A stretch of DNA of 64,000 bases from Escherichia phage vB_Eco_Jura: the sequence record LR999871; one strand, 5' to 3'. The translations under genes and the position numbers were made by a program. Below the pieces are notes generated by a model, which was given only the letters and a program-made list of their open reading frames with translations, did not search any database and was not told the origin of the DNA. Within the stretch, counting starts at the first letter, position 1. Every line of letters begins with the position of its first letter. This document shows, one piece after another, positions 18,701 to 29,548 of the stretch.

Positions 18701-20273
18701 CATCACGAATAGTAACTTCTGCTTCTGGTGCTTGAGCCATAGCTTCTTGTGCTGCCTGTGCAACATAGTCATCAGCAACAGGAGATGCTTCTTCATTCTG
18801 CTTCATAACCCGTTCACCACGAGCTACCAAAGTGTTCTTAATAGGAGAAACAACCTTACCTGCTACACTACCAGCAGCTTTAACACCAGCCATTGTGGTA
18901 CGCAATACAGGAGCAGTTGCAGCACCTGCTAAACGAGCAGCACCAGCCGGAGCCTGTACAACACCAGCAGAACCAAAGCCATAAAGAGCACCTAAACCAG
19001 CTTGTGTACCGACACCTTTAAGCAGGTCTTGGTTCTTATCAATGTTTTGTTGCTGTGCAATATTCTGAGCCAGTTGGCCTGTAGCACCCTGAACACCTTC
19101 TTCCACTGTTTCACGGGCAAGGTTCATACCTACAGCACCTAAAGAACCAGCACGGAAAGGAGCCATCTCAAAACGAGATACTAGAGGACCAGTTGCAGCA
19201 GCAATAGGTAATTGAATAGCAGCAGCAGTAAGACCAGTTTCAGATGCAGTCTGACGACGAGCCTGTTCTGGAGACATACCATCTTTAATATGTTGTTGAT
19301 AAACAGGAGACTTCTCTAAGTCTTTAAGACTCATCTTCATAATTTCATCAGCAGTTTGTTGGTATGCACCACCAGCTTCCATTGCACCAACACCAACCAT
19401 ACCTGGTGCAGCTCTGCCTACAGTAGAAGCAATACGAGCCAGTGACTGAGTACCAGTACCTGCATCAATAGCACCAGCCAATGCAGCACTACGAAGAGTA
19501 TTTGCTGGAACAACTGCTTTACCCAGTAAAGATGCACCCCTTAATACAGGACCAGCACCTAATAGAGAACCTACCCCTTCTGCTAACCCATCAGAAATAA
19601 TAGAGTCAGTTTGAGCAGCGTTCTCAATTGAACCTACAAAATCACGTCCAAATTTAGATAAGGAAGCTACTATGTCATTAGTGCCTTCTTTCTTATCTGT
19701 TTGATACTGACGTTCACTCTCTACTTCACTCATTAAGTTACGAGCAGCAAAGAGCTTACGTTTATCTTGTAATGCTTGGCTTTGGGTAGCATGGACAGCA
19801 TCATTAAACTTACTCAATTGTTGAGCAATGACAGCACCTGCATCATCGTTGAGTAAGCCTGCTCCAAGAGCACCAATGCCCCCAAGGGTATTAACAAAAC
19901 CAAGACCAACACCAGTAGCAATATCCCCCAGTTCTTCCCCAGGAGTTCTTGTAGTAATCGAATCATTGAATACTTGGTTCCCTGCATCAGCACGAGCGTT
20001 GATAAGTTGTAAGCCTTGCTCAACACCATACTTATTCATGATTTGCATTGGAGTCAGATTCATAAAATCTGATTGCACTGTCCCTGGTTCAAATGCATTA
20101 GCCCCAACATTACCAGTACGGGCAGCTTGCATTTGATAAGCAGCATCAGGAGAAACAAGAGGAGTAGTGACACCTTGTTCAGCTTTCTTCTGGGCGGTTG
20201 CAGTAGAGACGTCAACTTGCTTTGCATTGGTTACGCTGTCTGCGAACCCAGCCAGTCTATCAAATACTGACAT
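9771..20273 (-). CDS. virion-encapsidated giant RNA polymerase (N4 vRNAP-type), 3500 aa
   Basis: Track start 20291 is TTG inside the SD; first ATG at 20273 follows AGGAAA, giving exactly 3500 aa. Central region has T7-like motifs: EADGVTNGP (motif A-like), RGIAKNPLTITIYGSG (motif B, R-x3-K-x8-YG), IFDGMN (possible motif C). Confidence 0.85.
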   Translation of the reverse strand: MSVFDRLAGFADSVTNAKQVDVSTATAQKKAEQGVTTPLVSPDAAYQMQAARTGNVGANAFEPGTVQSDFMNLTPMQIMNKYGVEQGLQLINARADAGNQVFNDSITTRTPGEELGDIATGVGLGFVNTLGGIGALGAGLLNDDAGAVIAQQLSKFNDAVHATQSQALQDKRKLFAARNLMSEVESERQYQTDKKEGTNDIVASLSKFGRDFVGSIENAAQTDSIISDGLAEGVGSLLGAGPVLRGASLLGKAVVPANTLRSAALAGAIDAGTGTQSLARIASTVGRAAPGMVGVGAMEAGGAYQQTADEIMKMSLKDLEKSPVYQQHIKDGMSPEQARRQTASETGLTAAAIQLPIAAATGPLVSRFEMAPFRAGSLGAVGMNLARETVEEGVQGATGQLAQNIAQQQNIDKNQDLLKGVGTQAGLGALYGFGSAGVVQAPAGAARLAGAATAPVLRTTMAGVKAAGSVAGKVVSPIKNTLVARGERVMKQNEEASPVADDYVAQAAQEAMAQAPEAEVTIRDAVEATDATPEQKVAAHQYVSDLMNATRFNPENYQEAPEHIRNAVAGSTDQVQVIQKLADLVNTLDESNPQALMEAASYMYDAVSEFEQFINRDPAALDSIPKDSPAIELLNRYTNLTANIQNTPKVIGALNVINRMINESAQNGSLDVTEESSPQEMQNVALAAEVAPEKLNPESVNVVLKHAADGRIKLNNRQIAALQNAAAILKGAREYDAEAARLGLRPQDIVSKQIKTDESRTQEGQYSALQHANRIRSAYNSGNFELASAYLNDFMQFAQHMQNKVGALNEHLVTGNADKNKSVHYQALTADREWVRSRTGLGVNPYDTKSVKFAQQVALEAKTVADIANALASAYPELKVSHIKVTPLDSRLNAPAAEVVKAFRQGNRDVASSQQKADSVNQVKETPVTKQEPVTSTVQTKTPVSEPVKTEPTTKESRPQAIKEPVSQSEKRDVNLTNEDNIKQPTESVKETETSAKESTVTEELKEGIDAVYPSLVGTADSKAEGIKNYFKLSFTLPEEQKSRTVGSEAPLKDVAQALSSRARYELFTEKDVANPAFNGEVIKRYKELMEHGEGIADILRSRLAKFLNTKDVGKRFAQGTEANRWVGGKLLNIVEQDGDTFKYNEQLLQTAVLAGLQWRLTATSNTAIKDAKDVAAITGIDQALLPEGLVEQFDTGMTLTEAVSSLAQKIESYWGLSRNPNAPLGYTKGIPTAMAAEILAAFVESTDVVENIVDMSEIDPDNKKTIGLYTITELDSFDPINSFPTAIEEAVLVNPTEKMFFGDDIPPVANTQLRNPAVRNTPEQKAALKAEQATEFYVHTPMVQFYETLGKDRILELMGAGTLNKELLNDNHAKSLEGKNRSVEDSYNQLFSVIEQVRAQSEDISTVPIHYAYNMTRVGRMQMLGKYNPQSAKLVREAILPTKATLDLSNQNNEDFSAFQLGLAQALDIKVHTMTREVMSDELTKLLEGNLKPAIDMMVEFNTTGSLPENAVDVLNTALGDRKSFVALMALMEYSRYLVAEDKSAFVTPLYVEADGVTNGPINAMMLMTGGLFTPDWIRNIAKGGLFIGSPNKTMNEHRSTADNNDLYQASTNALMESLGKLRSNYASNMPIQSQIDSLLSLMDLFLPDINLGENGALELKRGIAKNPLTITIYGSGARGIAGKLVSSVTDAIYERMSDVLKARAKDPNISAAMAMFGKQAASEAHAEELLARFLKDMETLTSTVPVKRKGVLELQSTGAGAKGKINPKTYTIKGEQLKALQENMLHFFVEPLRNGITQTVGESLVYSTEQLQKATQIQSVVLEDMFKQRVQEKLAEKAKDPTWKKGDFLTQKELNDIQASLNNLAPMIETGSQTFYIAGSENAEVANQVLATNLDDRMRVPMSIYAPAQAGVAGIPFMTIGTGDGMMMQTLSTMKGAPKNTLKIFDGMNIGLNDITDASRKANEAVYTSWQGNPIKNVYESYAKFMKNVDFSKLSPEALEAIGKSALEYDQRENATVDDIANAASLIERNLRNIALGVDIRHKVLNKVNLSIDQMAAVGAPYQNNGKIDLSNMTPEQQADELNKLFREELEARKQKVAKAKAEVKEEIVSEKEPVNPDFGMVGREHKASGVRILSATAIRNLAKISNLPSTQAATLAEIQKSLAAKDYKIIYGTPTQVAEYARQKNVTELTSQEMEEAQAGNIYGWTNFDDKTIYLVSPSMETLIHELVHASTFEEVYSFYQGNEVSPTSKQAIENLEGLMEQFRSLDISKDSPEMREAYVDAIATIEGHLSNGFVDPAISKAAALNEFMAWGLANRALAAKQKRTSSLVQMVKDVYQAIKKLIWGRKQAPALGEDMFSNLLFNSAILMRSQPTTQAVAKDGTLFHSKAYGNNERLSQLNQTFDKLVTDYLRTDPVTEVERRGNVANALMSATRLVRDVQSRGFNMTAQEQSVFQMVTAALATEAAIDPHAMARAQELYTHVMKHLTVEHFMADPDSTNPADRYYAQQKYDTISGANLVEVDAKGRTSLLPTFLGLAMVNEELRSIIKEMPVPKADKKLGNDVDTLLTNAGTQVMESLNRRMAGDQKATNVQDSIDALSETIMAAALKRESFYDAVATPTGNFIDRANQYVMDSIERLSETVIEKADKVIANPSNVAAKGVAHLAKLTAAIASEKQGEIVAQGVMTAMNQGKVWQPFHDLVNDIVGRTKTNANVYDLIKLVKSQISQDRQQFREHLPTVIAGKFSRKLTDTEWSAMHTGLGKTDLAVLRETMSMAEIRDLLSSSKKVKDEISTLEKEIQNQAGRNWNLVQKKSKQLAQYMITGEVGNNLLRNAHAISRLLGERITNSPVADVAAIDKLTTLYSLELMNKSDRDLLSELAQSEVEGMEFSIAYMVGQRTEEMRKAKGDNRTLLNHFKGYIPVENQQGVNLIIADDKEFAKLNSQSFTRIGTYQGSTGFRTGSKGYYFSPVAARAPYSQGILQNVRNTAGGVDIGTGFTLGTMVAGRITDKPTVERITKALAKGERGREPLMPIYNSKGQVVAYEQSVDPNMLKHLNQDNHFAKMVGVWRGRQVEEAKAQRFNDILIEQLHAMYEKDIKDSSANKSQYVNLLGKIDDPVLADAINLMNIETRRKAEELFGKDELWVRRDMLNDALGYRAASIGDVWTGNSRWSPSTLDTVKKMFLGAFGNKAYHVVMNAENTIQNLVKDAKTVIVVKSVVVPAVNFLANIYQMIGRGVPVKDIAVNIPRKTSEINQYIKSRLRQIDAEAELRAAEGNPNLVRKLKTEIQSITDSHRRMSIWPLIEAGEFSSIADAGISRDDLLVAEGKIHEYMEKLANKLPEKVRNAGRYALIAKDTALFQGIQKTVEYSDFIAKAIIYDDLVKRKKKSSSEALGQVTEEFVNYDRLPGRFRGYMESMGLMWFYNFKIRSIKVAMSMIRNNPVHSLIATVVPAPAMFGNVGLPIQDNMLTMLAEGRLDYSLGFGQGLRAPTLNPWFNLTH

Positions 20274-20336
20274 AGTAGGTTTCCTATACAAACTTATATC
20301 TATTAGAAATCACACTATACCTAGTGTAAGGACGAG

Positions 20337-20373: not shown

Positions 20374-22308
20374 TTAACGAGGAAATATATCAGGGATACC
20401 CAATCGACGCCCGGCATCTCTGCCTAAACTTCTCCGGTTTGCCTCGCTCTCTTCCTGTTTAATATTTTGTAGGCTCTTAATATCCAAATTCTGAGGGTCA
20501 GCAGCTACAGCACTACGAGCACCATCAAGAAGACGTTTAGCAGTGTTAACTCGCTCCTGATAGCGAGGTAGTACACTTCTAAGGTTTTCCTGACCGGTTT
20601 GAATACGACGCTGTACTTCACGTAAATCAGCAAGTGCAGTATCTAACGTATTCTGTGCTGCATAGATGTTTGATTGAATTTGTGCAGTAAGCTGATTACG
20701 AGCATTCTGTTCAATAGCAGTACCAGTAGTTGCAAGTTTTGCATTTGCTTCTACGGCTGCTTTATCCAGTTGGTAATCACCACCCAAATCAATAACATCA
20801 GTATCAAAGGCATTTCGAATACCACTAAACCATCCCTCTGGTTTACCAGTGATACTACGTTGAATGATTGCTCCTGCCATAGCGGGAGAAATAGCATTCT
20901 GTTTTGCTACCTCATTGATTTGTCGAACCAGTGCACCTTGGTTAATACCTTTCAATTCGTTGCTATCAATAATACGTTTAGCTACCTGACCAGTCGTAGA
21001 AGGGTCAACAGTAGCTGCTTGGTATTCTGGCAGCAGAGTATTACCAATATTCTGCATATTACGAGTACCAACAGTATTACCAGCAACAGAAGTGAATGCT
21101 TGTTCCTGTAATGGATTAATAGAATTACCTGTTTCTGCTTGAGCAATGTAATCCTTCATTTCATCCCATGACAAGTTCTTATAAGCACCAGGAGTATCAT
21201 CTGGTAAAGCAGCCCATGTACTCTTCAAATTACCATTCTTACGAGCATTAAAAATAGCTTCACCCAGTTTGTCTTGGTTTTCTGGAGACATAGGAATGTT
21301 CTGCCAATCTTCACCAAATACCTTTGGAGCAAAGTCTTTAAGGGTATCTTGGTTAATCTGGTATGCACCAACAGGAGAAGCACCTAGTGTCTTCTTCATA
21401 GTGTCTTGATGCTGAACCACCTCACCTAAGTTCATCTGAGTAATAGGTACATCAGTTGGTGTGAACTTATAGGTAGTGTCATATGCAGAACCATTCCGAG
21501 TACCCTGAGTACCAGGAGGAGATAGAGATGCAGAACCAGTTCCCGGAGTATATGCACCTGGATATGCTCTATCTAACTGAGATAGTGCACGACTTACTGC
21601 TCCTGGTGACATTTGGTCGAACGTACCCTCTGCAAGCATACGAGCATCGTCAGAACTGTATGCACCACGACGAATATTATTCAGTAACTGCATAGCAGCC
21701 TGAGTATCCGCATCGTTACGCATATCAACACCTAAGTCGAATAAGCTACGACGTTGACCAATACCAGCAGTACCCTGTCCTTGAAGGTTGTTCATGTAGT
21801 CCATAACAACACCAGCAGGAAGGGTTTTTAATACATCCCCATACTGAGCCTGTGCTGCCTGAACCTTTCTTGGGTCACCAGATTGATAAGCCAGAGCCAA
21901 TTCCTGTAATGCAGGGGCAGCAGCATCAGTAGCTGCATTTACCTTCATGGTTCTGTCATTACTGTATCGAGTGAAATCCAGATTTTGTTGTTTAGATGCT
22001 TGGTCTAACAGATTGCCAGCACGATTATCTAAGTTCTCCATAGTACGAGAAGAAATTAGAGAAGGGTCATAGCCAGCAAATAATGCTCCAGAAGCTAAGG
22101 CATTACGATACTCATTAGGGTCTTGGTAGCGCATGGCTTCAGCCATAATTGCATCACCAGCTTGCTGTCTTGCAGAGTTTCGAAAATCACCTAATGCATT
22201 ACTCAATCCGGCAGTGGCATTACCCAGCATATTGGAGAAAGTACGAATACTATCCCCAACACCAGAGAAAGAAGGAGCATCAACATTACGCCATGTAATT
22301 TGAGCCAT
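20374..22308 (-). CDS. structural-module protein (644 aa), function unknown
   Basis: ATG preceded by AAGAGG; Gly/Ala/Gln-rich; a GAYQIN segment faintly recalls a transglycosylase motif. Position suggests a virion/internal protein. Confidence 0.6.
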   Translation of the reverse strand: MAQITWRNVDAPSFSGVGDSIRTFSNMLGNATAGLSNALGDFRNSARQQAGDAIMAEAMRYQDPNEYRNALASGALFAGYDPSLISSRTMENLDNRAGNLLDQASKQQNLDFTRYSNDRTMKVNAATDAAAPALQELALAYQSGDPRKVQAAQAQYGDVLKTLPAGVVMDYMNNLQGQGTAGIGQRRSLFDLGVDMRNDADTQAAMQLLNNIRRGAYSSDDARMLAEGTFDQMSPGAVSRALSQLDRAYPGAYTPGTGSASLSPPGTQGTRNGSAYDTTYKFTPTDVPITQMNLGEVVQHQDTMKKTLGASPVGAYQINQDTLKDFAPKVFGEDWQNIPMSPENQDKLGEAIFNARKNGNLKSTWAALPDDTPGAYKNLSWDEMKDYIAQAETGNSINPLQEQAFTSVAGNTVGTRNMQNIGNTLLPEYQAATVDPSTTGQVAKRIIDSNELKGINQGALVRQINEVAKQNAISPAMAGAIIQRSITGKPEGWFSGIRNAFDTDVIDLGGDYQLDKAAVEANAKLATTGTAIEQNARNQLTAQIQSNIYAAQNTLDTALADLREVQRRIQTGQENLRSVLPRYQERVNTAKRLLDGARSAVAADPQNLDIKSLQNIKQEESEANRRSLGRDAGRRLGIPDIFPR

Positions 22309-22318
22309 GTGATACCTC

Positions 22319-22771
22319 TTAACGAGTTAAGCGATTAGCTGCAATGTAAGCATCAGCCGTAGATTGGTCACGATTTTCTGCAACAGCACGACTACGAGCA
22401 CGGTCTTCCAGAGCAGTGTTATAGGACTTAATCTGGTTATTCAGATTAGTGTTAGTAACATCTTTAGCAAAAGAGAACTGATTCTTAGCTAACTTGTTAG
22501 CCTGTAATGCACCATAGATATTACCCAGTGCATTAAGACCACCTAACCCCAACTGGAAGGTAGGAATGTTCAGACCCAGTTGGTCAGTAAGCCCTTGAGT
22601 CTGTCCACCGGTATTCCCTGTAGCACCACCAGTAATGTTCTGAAGCCAGTCATTACTAAGGATGCCGGATTGCATAGGGTTATAGTTCATGGTTGGGGTA
22701 TTAAAGGAACCATATCCATAGCCAAAATTGCTTTGTGCAGATGGGGTTCCAAAAAGGAAATTAGTATCCAT
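22319..22771 (-). CDS. structural-module protein (150 aa), Gly/Asn/Thr-rich
   Basis: ATG preceded by AGGAGAA; low-complexity G/N/T-rich sequence. Confidence 0.6.
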   Translation of the reverse strand: MDTNFLFGTPSAQSNFGYGYGSFNTPTMNYNPMQSGILSNDWLQNITGGATGNTGGQTQGLTDQLGLNIPTFQLGLGGLNALGNIYGALQANKLAKNQFSFAKDVTNTNLNNQIKSYNTALEDRARSRAVAENRDQSTADAYIAANRLTR

Positions 22772-22784
22772 AAGGATTCTCCTG

Positions 22785-25442
22785 TTACGTATCTAAATCA
22801 AGCTGCAACGTTATATCTGCAAAGTTGGTAATCATGTTGTTAGACATATCAGCTATATCATGACCAGTCATAAGAGTACGGCTAAGGAATGAATCCAGTG
22901 GTTCAAATTGTTGGCCTACATTAGTTAGGTTCATTGGGTCAATGTAACCCATGCCCTCAGTGCCAAACATTTCCTCGTACTTTTCCTGAATGGTTTTCAT
23001 CTGGTCACGGTACTCTGCCATAAGTTTCTCTGTCTTTTTGACAGTTTCCATAGCAGAAGCATTGATGTAATCACTTATGCCATTTCCTACAGATGAAGTG
23101 AGTTTAATGATGTTGTCTGCTTTCATCATTTCACCCAGCATCGTAGACATGGATGAACCAGTGGATAAAGCTGTGCCGACATTCATGGCTACCATAGAGG
23201 CAATAGTAGCAACAATGATTCCAATCTTATCCCCAAGTAGACTAACAGAGACTGTTTGAATAATGGACATCAGAATCATAGCTGCAATGGCATTAGCCAC
23301 AGCCCCAACGATAATAGCAGCTAACCCTGCAAAACCTAATGCAGCACCAATAGAAGCAGCAGTACCCATTACCCCAGCACCAGCAGCAGGGGTAAAGAAC
23401 ACAGACACTACTACTGCAACAACAACCACTACTACTTTAAAGATGCCAGACTGATACCATTTCTTCTTAACTTTCTTATATGAGTTAAGAACCAGATAAC
23501 AACATGCTGTAGATAACTGAGTACCATTTACCAAAGACATACTACGGTAAATGTTGTTATGAAGAGGGATGATAAATCCAGACTCTTCATCATCATTTAG
23601 TGCATCTACACCAGAAATGCTTACAGATTTATTCTTGTAAACATTATTGTTATGGTTCAGGCCATAGACAGAAATCTTCCTCCATGAATTATCCCCATCC
23701 TGCCAATACATTGTTATCTTATCTAGCCTGTAGATAGTAAACCCAACTTTGTCATTACCCTTTTCAGAGTACATAACAGCTTTCTGCATAAGGACTACAG
23801 TACCTTCATAAGCAAACTTGAGCTGCCCTTTCTTGGCTCCAGAGAATGCTTTACCTGAACCAACGGACTCTTCAATGAAGTTCCAACTAATAGTCATGTT
23901 GTAACGGTATCCACCGTTAGAACGGATATTAATGGATTTAGAAGGTATTGTTGGGTATACGGGTCTTTTAGGGGGCTTCCCTATGGGAATATCCCTATTA
24001 CCACTACGAGATTCCCACCATTCCTGGTAAGCATCAAAGTCCCTGTTAGCCTGAGCAAAGCCTTCTACCAAAGCATCCATAGTTGGGTAGTTTGGGTCAG
24101 CAGGCATTGACTGATTCACTAACTGGAAGAATCTGTAGATGTACTCTTTAGCTGTATTTTCAGGGCTATTAAGAGAACAACCAAATACAGCATAGATATA
24201 CTGAATATCACCAATATCTTTGTTCTTCTTCAGGTCATCCATAATGTCAGAAATCTTACCCCCTGTAGCCTTCTTAAAGGCTTTCTTACAAAGAGTATAT
24301 GTAGAACCAGAAATCCAGTTCTTATCACTACGGATAGGGATGAATGAATAGAATCTGTTATTGGTCGTCTTATTAATAAACAGAGCATCAAGGACGGCAT
24401 TACCACTGTTCTGTTTATAAATAAACAATTGAGGCATACCACCAGCAGACATAGTAGTAACTACATCTGTATTCTGATAAGACCATGTATAACCTAAAGT
24501 ATCTGTAGTTACTGTAGTAGTTCTGGTTTCAGTAACCCCACCACCTAAATCAATAACTTCAGTGTTTGTAGTGGAACCAGTGGATACAGTGCCAGTCTGT
24601 ACCTGGGTCATTGTAGTCTTACGAATAATGATTAAGCCTACTTCACTTGGTTCACGAAATTCTTTCTCGTAAACATCTGAGAAATTAGTCCAACTAACCT
24701 GTTCTTCTTCAGTATTGGTACTTTCCTCATCAGGTCTGCCATCAGAGAATACACTCTTAATATGAGTAACTGTCTTCAGGGTAGCTGACTTAGGAGTATG
24801 GTTCTGAGATACCTGAGTCCATTCAGAAGTAGAAGGTAAGTCATCAGCAGATGATACAGATACAGCAGGGTGAACCACTGGGTCTGCAACACTAGTAGGC
24901 TGTATGTAGTAATAGTTCACATACAGATACATTGCATCCTGACTGAAATTCTCTGGGTAAAAGGATAACTCACTACCATCAGTAGCAGTGAGTACAATCC
25001 TGTCATCATCCATGATGTCTATTTCAAACTCTTCAGTAATACGGTCTGGATAATTCTCATAGAGGAATTTATCAGCCCATTCCTCAAAATCACCAAATCC
25101 AATCCTACTGCTCTGAACCTGTACCTCATAACCTGCTTTTTGAGGAACTTGCCATTTAACTACTTCAGGGTCTATCTGAGACAGTATTGACAAGTTCCCG
25201 TAAGCAATACCAATTGAAGGGTCATAGTTAGTTGCAGCCCAACCAGGGAATCTACGTAAACGAATACCAGGTCCATTTAAATAAGAGTCAGTGATGGTAT
25301 CACCCATACTAAAGTCAGATTTACTGACGATGTTACCAATCACCGTAGTCTTTAAATAATTTGGACGTTTATGTATATCCCCTGCCAAATTGTAGACAGA
25401 GGATGCTACGTAGATTTTAGTCTTACTGCTAAACAGTCCCAT
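22785..25442 (-). CDS. large virion protein (885 aa) with a cluster of predicted transmembrane helices
   Basis: ATG right after the upstream stop. About 120 residues of consecutive hydrophobic segments (VVVVVAVVVSVFF...AGLAAIIVGAVANAIAAMILMSIIQ...IIVATIASMVAMNVGTAL), as in ejection/channel proteins. Confidence 0.65.
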   Translation of the reverse strand: MGLFSSKTKIYVASSVYNLAGDIHKRPNYLKTTVIGNIVSKSDFSMGDTITDSYLNGPGIRLRRFPGWAATNYDPSIGIAYGNLSILSQIDPEVVKWQVPQKAGYEVQVQSSRIGFGDFEEWADKFLYENYPDRITEEFEIDIMDDDRIVLTATDGSELSFYPENFSQDAMYLYVNYYYIQPTSVADPVVHPAVSVSSADDLPSTSEWTQVSQNHTPKSATLKTVTHIKSVFSDGRPDEESTNTEEEQVSWTNFSDVYEKEFREPSEVGLIIIRKTTMTQVQTGTVSTGSTTNTEVIDLGGGVTETRTTTVTTDTLGYTWSYQNTDVVTTMSAGGMPQLFIYKQNSGNAVLDALFINKTTNNRFYSFIPIRSDKNWISGSTYTLCKKAFKKATGGKISDIMDDLKKNKDIGDIQYIYAVFGCSLNSPENTAKEYIYRFFQLVNQSMPADPNYPTMDALVEGFAQANRDFDAYQEWWESRSGNRDIPIGKPPKRPVYPTIPSKSINIRSNGGYRYNMTISWNFIEESVGSGKAFSGAKKGQLKFAYEGTVVLMQKAVMYSEKGNDKVGFTIYRLDKITMYWQDGDNSWRKISVYGLNHNNNVYKNKSVSISGVDALNDDEESGFIIPLHNNIYRSMSLVNGTQLSTACCYLVLNSYKKVKKKWYQSGIFKVVVVVVAVVVSVFFTPAAGAGVMGTAASIGAALGFAGLAAIIVGAVANAIAAMILMSIIQTVSVSLLGDKIGIIVATIASMVAMNVGTALSTGSSMSTMLGEMMKADNIIKLTSSVGNGISDYINASAMETVKKTEKLMAEYRDQMKTIQEKYEEMFGTEGMGYIDPMNLTNVGQQFEPLDSFLSRTLMTGHDIADMSNNMITNFADITLQLDLDT

Positions 25443-25445
25443 GTA

Positions 25446-26354
<909 letters not shown>

Positions 26355-26424: not shown

Positions 26425-27051
26425 TTATTGCGAGTCTACGCTACCAGCAGCAATCTGAGCAGCAGCCAGAGTTTGCAATTCTTCCTTAGTCAGTGGAGGC
26501 AGAACTTCAATGGCAAACTCACGTACCCATGCAGACGTAATATTAGGCTGACCATTCTTACCTTTGGTAACTCGAATGTTCAGGAACTTACGTTCTTTGA
26601 GGAAGTTATAAATACAGTAAGGGATGTGATAGCCCTCATCAGTAGCTTCACCAAATGGAACGAATTTACGAACAGTACCAATATATTCGTTAGCTACTGT
26701 AATAATCTCACCAGGCAGGTCTTTCTTCTTAGGGTCAAGGTTCTGAATACGTACTCGAACCAGCTTTAATTGTTCTAAGCGTTGCTGGTGACGTAAAGAA
26801 GTTGCCGTAGTTACTGTACCTGTAGACAGAGCCAGAGGATTAGGCTGAGGTTCTACTGGTTCCTGAGCTTTATTTTCCTGTGCTGCTTCAATCTTCTTAC
26901 GAAGAGTTTCAGCACTAATATTATTTGAGTATGAAATACCCATCATATTAGCTCGTTGTTTCAGCAGAGAAAGTTCATCAACCTTAACTTCATCAACGGT
27001 GTCATCGTTGCCCTGAGTTAAATCAGCGGTCGGTTTATCGTTAATGCTCAT
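26425..27051 (-). CDS. head-assembly module protein (208 aa)
   Basis: ATG immediately downstream of the post-capsid hairpin; function unknown. Confidence 0.6.
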   Translation of the reverse strand: MSINDKPTADLTQGNDDTVDEVKVDELSLLKQRANMMGISYSNNISAETLRKKIEAAQENKAQEPVEPQPNPLALSTGTVTTATSLRHQQRLEQLKLVRVRIQNLDPKKKDLPGEIITVANEYIGTVRKFVPFGEATDEGYHIPYCIYNFLKERKFLNIRVTKGKNGQPNITSAWVREFAIEVLPPLTKEELQTLAAAQIAAGSVDSQ

Positions 27052-28330: not shown

Positions 28331-29548
28331 TTATAGGCCGTTCAGCCGAGGTAGTTTCATAAAGTCCTCGTCACTCATTGCAAGAGGATTAACAAGGACT
28401 TCTGTCTTACGCGGTGTAACCCGTGATGGGGATGCCGCTGCTGCCTGTTGAGTATTAGTGATTTCAGACTTAGGAGTTGCAACACGAGTTGCTACTGGCT
28501 GAACCACTGGTTTAGGTTGTTCAACAGGTTTCTGCTTAATCAAATCATTAAAACCACCATTAGCAGCAAGGTAGTTACCGACTTGATTATAAGCATCCAG
28601 GAATGCTGTACCGATTGGGATTTGGCCTAAGATTTTGAGTCGTTCAATTTCAGAAACAATACGGTCGTAAATACCGTTAGCTTTCTGTTCAACGATGGTA
28701 TTAACCAGACCACGATTTTCCAGCAATGCCTGTTTGCTGTGGTCATCCCACGTAGTCGAAATTAACTGAAGAGTAGCTTGTCCTTCTGGAGTGGATTTAG
28801 CATCTTCCAGTTCGGTTGCAAATGCTGCTTCAGCATCTGACACACGGTGATTACCAGCTTGGTATTTAACTTCCTCTTCTGGATTAATATCCAGAACATC
28901 AATACCAGATTCTTTAACCAACTTCTTAATAGCATCAGGATTCCCTTTAACTAAATCGATAGCATAAGAGAGTTGCCCTTCATCTAATAATCCGTTGTTT
29001 TCTAACATCAGGAGATACTTACGATACGGCTGAATCTCCTGCATTTTACGGGTATAGTTAGCTCCCATTTGCATCAGGCTAATGACCTCTTCAGGACTCT
29101 GAGGAGTAATCATTTTGCCGTTAGCTTTAAACGGAGCCATTATCCGTTCATAACCAGCCTTATAGTCGAAGTCAGTTTTCTGGTCTGATACCTGCTTGTC
29201 TTCTTCTACTTTTGCTTGGCCTTGCTCAGTAGTAGAAGGTGCATTATCAGTAGCAGGCTTACTGTTGCTGTCAACCTTATTTGGGTCAACTGTAGCACTA
29301 TCATTACCAGTTGTGAATGCATCTGAATTGCTTTCTGATTCAGAAGTATTTTCTACTTCAGTTGGTTCAGTAGTTACTTCTGGTTCATCAGTTTGTTCAA
29401 CTTCAACAATTGGGTCTGGTTGTGCAGGAGTATTATTTTCTACCGGTTCCGGGTTGTTCTGAATGCTTGATGGACCAGGCATGTTCAGAATCTCTTCATC
29501 CGACATTTTAAAAATGTCGGAAGCTGTTTTTGCAGCTTCCGTAGTCAT
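28331..29548 (-). CDS. acidic low-complexity protein (405 aa), scaffolding-like candidate
   Basis: ATG preceded by GGAG; N-terminal 130 aa are strongly acidic and low-complexity (EPEVTTEPTEVENTSESESNSD...); sits between portal and capsid genes. Confidence 0.5.
   Translation of the reverse strand: MTTEAAKTASDIFKMSDEEILNMPGPSSIQNNPEPVENNTPAQPDPIVEVEQTDEPEVTTEPTEVENTSESESNSDAFTTGNDSATVDPNKVDSNSKPATDNAPSTTEQGQAKVEEDKQVSDQKTDFDYKAGYERIMAPFKANGKMITPQSPEEVISLMQMGANYTRKMQEIQPYRKYLLMLENNGLLDEGQLSYAIDLVKGNPDAIKKLVKESGIDVLDINPEEEVKYQAGNHRVSDAEAAFATELEDAKSTPEGQATLQLISTTWDDHSKQALLENRGLVNTIVEQKANGIYDRIVSEIERLKILGQIPIGTAFLDAYNQVGNYLAANGGFNDLIKQKPVEQPKPVVQPVATRVATPKSEITNTQQAAAASPSRVTPRKTEVLVNPLAMSDEDFMKLPRLNGL

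Follow-up and report, generated by a model that had tools for sequence, protein, structure and literature searches.

A conserved hydrophobic block in gp53, the probable tail plug of Escherichia phage vB_Eco_Jura

In the 64,000-nt stretch of Escherichia phage vB_Eco_Jura DNA analysed here (record LR999871; hereafter the window), positions 22785-25442 encode an 885-aa protein that is soluble in character over most of its length and carries one long hydrophobic block. Such a block raises the question of whether the protein enters the host envelope or acts on the phage particle itself. The original prediction, made from the sequence of the window, favored the envelope: it held that this is a virion protein ejected during infection, whose transmembrane (TM)-like helices form the translocation channel for DNA and for a 3500-aa polymerase. 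Here, we analyzed the identity of the gene, the properties and conservation of the block and the published structures of related tails, and weighed the roles that the block may play.

Identification of the gene and its neighbours

In the ORF listing of the window, the 885-aa ORF at 22785-25442 lies on the minus strand and begins with an ATG, and the corresponding frame of the plus strand is full of stops. The original prediction named no strand for this interval. The gene shares 99.5% DNA identity with Escherichia phage PMBT57 and 98.0% with coliphage N4, whose record annotates it merely as 'gp53'. A sequence search against the PDB matched residues 1-885 to chain FA of entry 9yft ('Gp53', 885 aa, 1986 bits). 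The Jura protein differs from N4 Gp53 by 7 substitutions in 885 residues (at about positions 90, 164, 166, 278, 318, 331 and 875), none of which falls in the hydrophobic block or in the 29-56 segment of the knot described below. The match to PHROG 2220 was also full-length (residues 1-884, 1043 bits). In addition, chain M of 9ze4, the 'N4 gp53-like protein' of Pseudomonas phage DEV, was matched, with its best stretch (query residues 623-881) including the hydrophobic block, and the globular core fold is common to Jura gp53 and a solved tail plug. These data indicate that the product of 22785-25442 is very probably the tail plug of an N4-like podovirus, the ortholog of N4 gp53 and DEV gp74, with the plug role itself taken from Bellis et al. 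(2026). From the ~99% protein identity to N4, we infer that a single copy per virion occludes the tail tube in Jura as well.

Searches of Pfam with the full protein and with residues 623-885 (E up to 10) gave no meaningful family, the TgpA_N match at E 3.5 being noise, and NCBIfam (E up to 1) likewise gave no meaningful family for gp53, with GWxTD and VraH far under their cut-offs. Structural matches in BFVD to maturation proteins of ssRNA phages (E 1e-5 to 1e-3) were dismissed, with a TM-score of about 0.1.

The surrounding genes, gp50 (the virion RNA polymerase, vRNAP) through gp51, gp52, gp53, gp54, gp55, gp56, gp57, gp58 and gp59, are all on the minus strand in the same order as in N4, with gp56 being the major capsid protein and gp59 the portal. 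Immediately upstream of gp53, the stop codon of gp54 (25446-26345, minus strand) lies 3 nt ahead of the gp53 ATG; gp54 matches 'Gp54' in PDB 9lc0, 9yf4, 9yf5 and 9yft (E 1.7e-191), corresponds to the DEV gp75 tail tube, and is the dodecameric tail tube whose distal opening gp53 plugs. Downstream of gp53 lie gp52 (22319-22771, minus strand; '16.5 kDa protein' of PDB 9yf4, E 3.9e-95), a 16.5-kDa ejection protein that is kept behind the plug in the lumen of the tail, and gp51 (20374-22308, minus strand), the 66-kDa ejection protein, which matches residues 1-359 of the '66 kDa protein' in PDB 11mn (E 9.6e-233). The next gene, gp50, is listed as an ORF of 3506 codons at 9771-20291 with a TTG start, and its translation begins LYRKPTMSVF with a Met at codon 7. 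The true start is likely the ATG six codons downstream of the TTG, which gives a polymerase of 3500 aa (9771-20273, minus strand), the length of the N4 vRNAP.

Properties of the hydrophobic block

The block comprises ~105 residues (~666-770; codons 667-770 at 23133-23444, minus strand) and was delimited by hydropathy, charge-free runs, helix prediction and conservation. Kyte-Doolittle windows of 19 residues with a value of at least 1.6 cover residues 661-760, and two charge-free runs span 670-737 (68 aa) and 740-770 (31 aa), the whole being preceded by the basic motif KKVKKK at 656-661. Alanine (21), valine (18), isoleucine (14) and glycine (12) dominate the 115 residues from 667 to 781. Mean hydropathy is +1.53 in the block versus -0.47 in the remainder of gp53, and outside the block the 19-residue window value never exceeds 1.04. 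In 5000 shuffles of gp53 itself, the best 100-residue window averaged 0.43 +/- 0.14 with a maximum of 1.13, compared with 1.73 in the real protein, and the longest charge-free run reached at most 57 residues, compared with 68. The block is thus far beyond chance. These results confirm the predicted 885-aa ORF and its V/A/I/G-rich block, which is nevertheless ~105 rather than 120 residues long and is located in the C-terminal quarter of the protein (75-87% of its length), not in its center.

By sequence criteria, the block appears membrane-competent. Simple sums on the Hessa scale, without position or length terms, were +0.26 kcal/mol for residues 666-684, -0.79 for 710-728 and +2.3 for 740-758, and by the same sum the Gly-rich stretch 688-706 was insertion-incompetent. 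In the published N4 virion structure, the block contributes to a knot of protein and does not lie in a bilayer. The hydrophobic moments of the TM-like segments are low. Strong and extended TM-like segments occur in no protein of gp50-gp59 other than gp53; the C-terminal domain of gp50 has a single marginal one. The maxima of the 19-residue Kyte-Doolittle windows of gp51 and gp52, both of which are membrane-active in experiments, are just 0.65 and 0.90, respectively.

Structure of gp53 in the tail

The function and structure of gp53, including its hydrophobic knot, are already known, having been published in 2025-2026 with deposited structures. PDB 9YFT is the asymmetric tail-gating complex of N4 (Bellis et al., Nat Commun 2026, PMC13434306), in which one copy of gp53 closes the dodecameric gp54 tube. 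Outside the tube lie the globular core of gp53 and a 'feather-shaped beta-sheet protrusion'. The core is gripped by domains D9-D10 of gp65, from one subunit of the receptor-binding sheath, in a 12:6:1 symmetry mismatch (PMC13434306). Residues 670-716 and 29-56 together form a 'hydrophobic knot' of six short alpha helices in the tube lumen (PMC13434306). The built model spans residues 9-724, and cryo-EM accounts for just about half of the block; the remaining part and the ~115 C-terminal residues run further up the tail lumen, beyond the built model (PMC13434306). The plug role is backed by an independent study (Structure 2025) and by the work on DEV. The prediction of a virion protein was correct: gp53 was found in N4 virions by LC-MS and cryo-EM (PMC13434306), and mass spectrometry in 2010 revealed its LIT1 ortholog, gp74, in virions. 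In 2008, gp53 had gone unidentified in the N4 particle, consistent with its presence in one copy.

We also modelled gp53 with AlphaFold2 on an alignment of 33 sequences (mean pLDDT 69.7). The core, residues 9-658, was modelled confidently and folds without the block. In the block, helices were predicted at 666-682, 695-701, 707-736 and 738-758 and beta strands nowhere, at a pLDDT of just 25-48, so that the model cannot place the block or the C-terminal tail and is informative on helix propensity alone. Together with the short alpha helices seen by cryo-EM at 670-716, these helices agree with the predicted helical nature of the block rather than with a buried beta core. The other elements of the plug could also be assigned. 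The N-terminal segment that joins 670-716 in the knot (codons 29-56 at 25275-25358, minus strand) is conserved and carries predicted helices at 29-40 and 46-55. The beta-feather (codons 209-332 at 24447-24818, minus strand) consists of four long strands at 209-232, 239-264, 270-300 and 303-332, predicted with a pLDDT of 85-90. The C-terminal tail (codons 771-885 at 22788-23132, minus strand), which would lie in the tail lumen, is predicted to be helical at 789-826, 849-856 and 860-879 with low pLDDT.

Conservation across the family

A word-indexed search returned 341 family members, and an exhaustive search returned 1857 cluster representatives, 643 of them at an E-value of 1e-30 or below. All 33 aligned homologs, down to 36% identity, show a charge-free run at the same place; it is 42 residues or longer throughout and measures 55-75 residues in 32 of them. 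Across 252 homologs (605-1016 aa), all except one contain a 100-residue window with a mean hydropathy of at least 1.2, and the distance from the end of the block to the C-terminus is 120 +/- 6 residues, which makes the tail nearly constant in length across the family. Identity over the whole protein was 0.43. By region, it was 0.64 for residues 1-60, 0.67 for 621-665, ~0.56 for the block and 0.30 for the feather, the lowest of all. The most conserved 30-residue window, 699-728, reached 0.75. These values show that the parts of gp53 that enter the tube are its most conserved parts.

The invariant residues of the block are F668, G699, G703, A709, G713, N717, A720, G737 and G741, which are mainly small; the invariant Gly and Ala together with the polar N717 suggest tight, specific helix-helix packing. 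In the C-terminal tail, E847, F852, R855, T856 and G860 are invariant. A shorter form of 700-780 aa accounts for about 28 of the 252 homologs; like DEV gp74, these align just from about residue 300-338 onward. The beta-feather is an insertion that varies within the family, and DEV gp74 and the homologs of ~725-770 aa lack it. Since the role of gp53 and its hydrophobic knot are already published, finding the block in Jura brings no new biology. What the present analysis adds is that the block and the ~120-residue C-terminal tail make up a nearly invariant module in the 252 homologs examined, that conservation is highest in the lumen-inserted parts, and that strong, extended TM-like segments are peculiar to gp53 within the virion and ejection module of N4.

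Possible roles of the hydrophobic block

The best-supported account of Jura gp53 is the published one, carried over on the near-identity of the two proteins. According to it, the knot corks the tail tube and holds in the DNA and the ejection proteins. The authors propose that the binding of gp65 to the receptor NfrA would displace the plug sideways, and that the displaced plug would stay tethered to gp65 while gp52, gp51, the gp50 polymerase and DNA are released. Judging from the pattern of conservation, the hydrophobicity of the block and its many small residues may serve its tight packing on itself and with segment 29-56 inside a narrow, water-filled lumen of ~35 A rather than insertion across a bilayer. 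In this account, gp53 is a gate through which phages of a widespread family couple receptor binding to the exit of their DNA and of a 380-kDa polymerase. Three other accounts of the block were considered.

The strongest of these, which we consider unlikely overall, keeps gp53 as a plug and adds a second step: once pulled out of the tube by the receptor-binding event, the ~100 hydrophobic residues might insert, perhaps transiently, in the outer membrane next to the receptor, where they could anchor the tail tip or seed the gp52/gp51 pore. Two to three segments of gp53 have the length and energetics of TM helices, low hydrophobic moments and the flanking KKVKKK motif, a combination that, leaving aside the marginal gp50 segment, no other protein of gp50-gp59 offers, and this membrane-like character is kept in 251 of the 252 homologs. 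Once unplugged, the ~100 hydrophobic residues would probably also face water in the immediate vicinity of the membrane. A precedent is documented in phi29, where the gp9 L-loops occupy the tube of the tail knob in the virion and, after DNA release, leave it to form a membrane-active barrel of helices with a hydrophobic exterior and about the height of a bilayer (PMC6542822). If true, the insertion of gp53 would be the single-copy counterpart of this L-loop mechanism. Against it, gp53 is present in one copy, compared with six in phi29; the conservation of residues 699-728 extends beyond hydrophobicity to the sequence itself, which fits a specific protein-protein fold; and the published model works without a membrane step. 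Moreover, the plug was retained and re-seated on particles after DNA release (PMC13434306), although these empty particles had lost their DNA in vitro and not into a cell, and the authors note that retention and re-corking may not mirror infection (PMC13434306). If such insertion occurs, the inserted part might include the half of the block beyond the built model. The ~120-residue C-terminal tail could serve as a lumenal tether or as a sensor contacting gp52.

Far less probable is the role originally predicted, in which gp53 itself is ejected and contributes its TM helices to a channel across the envelope through which DNA and the 3500-aa polymerase pass. This reading draws on the TM-like block, on the position of the protein in the virion and on the automatic annotation of homologs as 'TMhelix containing protein'. 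Indeed, gp53 does lie on the exit path of the DNA and the polymerase, but as a gate rather than as a translocation channel, being a single-copy plug with its block inside the gp54 tube and its large globular core outside it. The about four helices of a single gp53 molecule cannot form the wall of a ~35 A conduit through which a 3500-residue polymerase passes. Bellis et al. instead attribute the envelope channel to gp52, gp51 and the gp50 N-terminal domain (PMC13434306); in lipid bilayers, gp51 and gp52 gave rise to heterogeneous channels, and the ejection cassette conserved in Schitoviridae consists of gp50-gp51-gp52 and excludes gp53 (PMC13434306). Ejection into the envelope is likewise at odds with the published data, as gp53 was still on the particle after DNA release. 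Podovirus ejection proteins that build such a channel are expected to be stored in multiple copies inside the capsid or tail and to be gone from the particle once the genome is released, features that gp53 does not show. In practice, the channel role is already contradicted. Least credible of all is a block that forms the buried beta-sheet core of a globular domain, for although the beta-branched run at 670-683 (VVVVVVAVVVSVFF) would favor strands in a soluble context, residues 670-716 are short alpha helices that lie in the lumen of the tube, away from the core (PDB 9YFT), and AlphaFold2 predicts helices throughout 666-758 and a core that folds with confidence in their absence.

Comparison with known systems

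N4 gp53 (9YFT, PMC13434306) is practically the same protein as Jura gp53: the two share every residue of the hydrophobic block, and the order of the surrounding genes does not differ. DEV gp74 (PDB 9ZE4; mBio 2026, PMC12892993) is shorter (740 aa), lacking the beta-feather, and is held by the receptor-binding fibre gp56-gp55-gp54, whereas N4 gp53 is held by the gp65 sheath; the receptors are LptD for DEV and NfrA for N4. Phi29 gp9 is a functional analog in that its hydrophobic helical segments also fill the distal lumen of the tail tube, but it acts in six copies, its loops belong to the tube-forming protein and not to a separate plug, and its host is Gram-positive. No sequence or fold relationship between gp53 and phi29 gp9 was detected.

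The proteins that leave the virion and build a trans-envelope channel, the DNA ejectosome, are gp14, gp15 and gp16 in T7 and gp52, gp51 and the gp50 N-terminal domain in N4. In contrast, gp53 is a single-copy protein outside the capsid and the tube, is kept on spent particles and does not belong to the gp50-gp51-gp52 cassette. The tail needles of P22 (gp26) and Sf6 are also distal plugs that seal the tail channel after packaging and are displaced at infection. The needles are trimeric coiled-coil fibres that lack a hydrophobic knot and are believed to be expelled, whereas gp53 is a monomeric globular protein that is proposed to stay tethered to the tail.

Hydrophobic segments in the ejection proteins

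The proposed N4 envelope channel consists of gp52, gp51 and the N-terminal domain of gp50, the virion RNA polymerase (vRNAP). Experiments have shown membrane-protein behavior and pore formation for the 66-kDa gp51 (20374-22308, minus strand) and the 16.5-kDa gp52 (22319-22771, minus strand). This contrasts with the absence of classical hydrophobic segments from both proteins in Kyte-Doolittle profiles over 19-residue windows, where the maxima were 0.65 and 0.90, respectively. The same profile of gp50 (9771-20291, minus strand) contained a single marginal segment at residues ~3216-3237 of the C-terminal domain, outside the N-terminal domain that is proposed for the inner-membrane complex. The assignments of gp51 and gp52 conflict between two places within the published model (PMC13434306): the abstract assigns gp51 to the outer-membrane complex and gp52 to the periplasmic tunnel, whereas the legend of its Fig. 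8 has gp52 implanted as the outer-membrane complex and gp51 forming the tunnel. This discrepancy has no bearing on the tail plug protein gp53.

The mechanically called vRNAP ORF starts with TTG and comprises 3506 codons, the first six of which occupy 20274-20291 (minus strand). Six codons 3' of this TTG lies an ATG (translation ...LYRKPT-MSVFDRL), which is likely the true start, because the resulting 3500 aa equal the length reported for N4 vRNAP.

Annotation of gp53 homologs and neighboring genes

Some gp53 homologs in BFVD (from Vibrio phages 1.152.O and 1.261.O and Podoviridae sp. entries) carry the automated names 'TMhelix containing protein', 'Solute carrier family 12 protein' and 'Secretion system effector C-like'. 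The hydrophobic block evidently misled the pipelines. In addition, one Burkholderia phage homolog is named 'baseplate wedge protein' in NCBI.

The 405-aa gp57 homolog (28331-29548, minus strand) matched PHROG 2120 (E 4e-140), which is labeled 'tail length tape measure protein'. Such a label is odd for a short-tailed phage, given that the portal-side genes lie on one side of this gene and the major capsid gene on the other. The label is probably a mis-annotation carried over, and a scaffold-like role seems more plausible. A faint match in Pfam linked the 208-aa gp55 (26425-27051, minus strand) to the adenovirus core protein VII family (E 0.0049); its 17.8 bits fall below the cut-off of 21.2, and basic composition alone may account for it.

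Two antisense ORFs on the plus strand overlap the ends of gp53, one of 83 codons (22580-22831) and the other of 124 codons (25371-25745). Both are most likely chance ORFs rather than genes.
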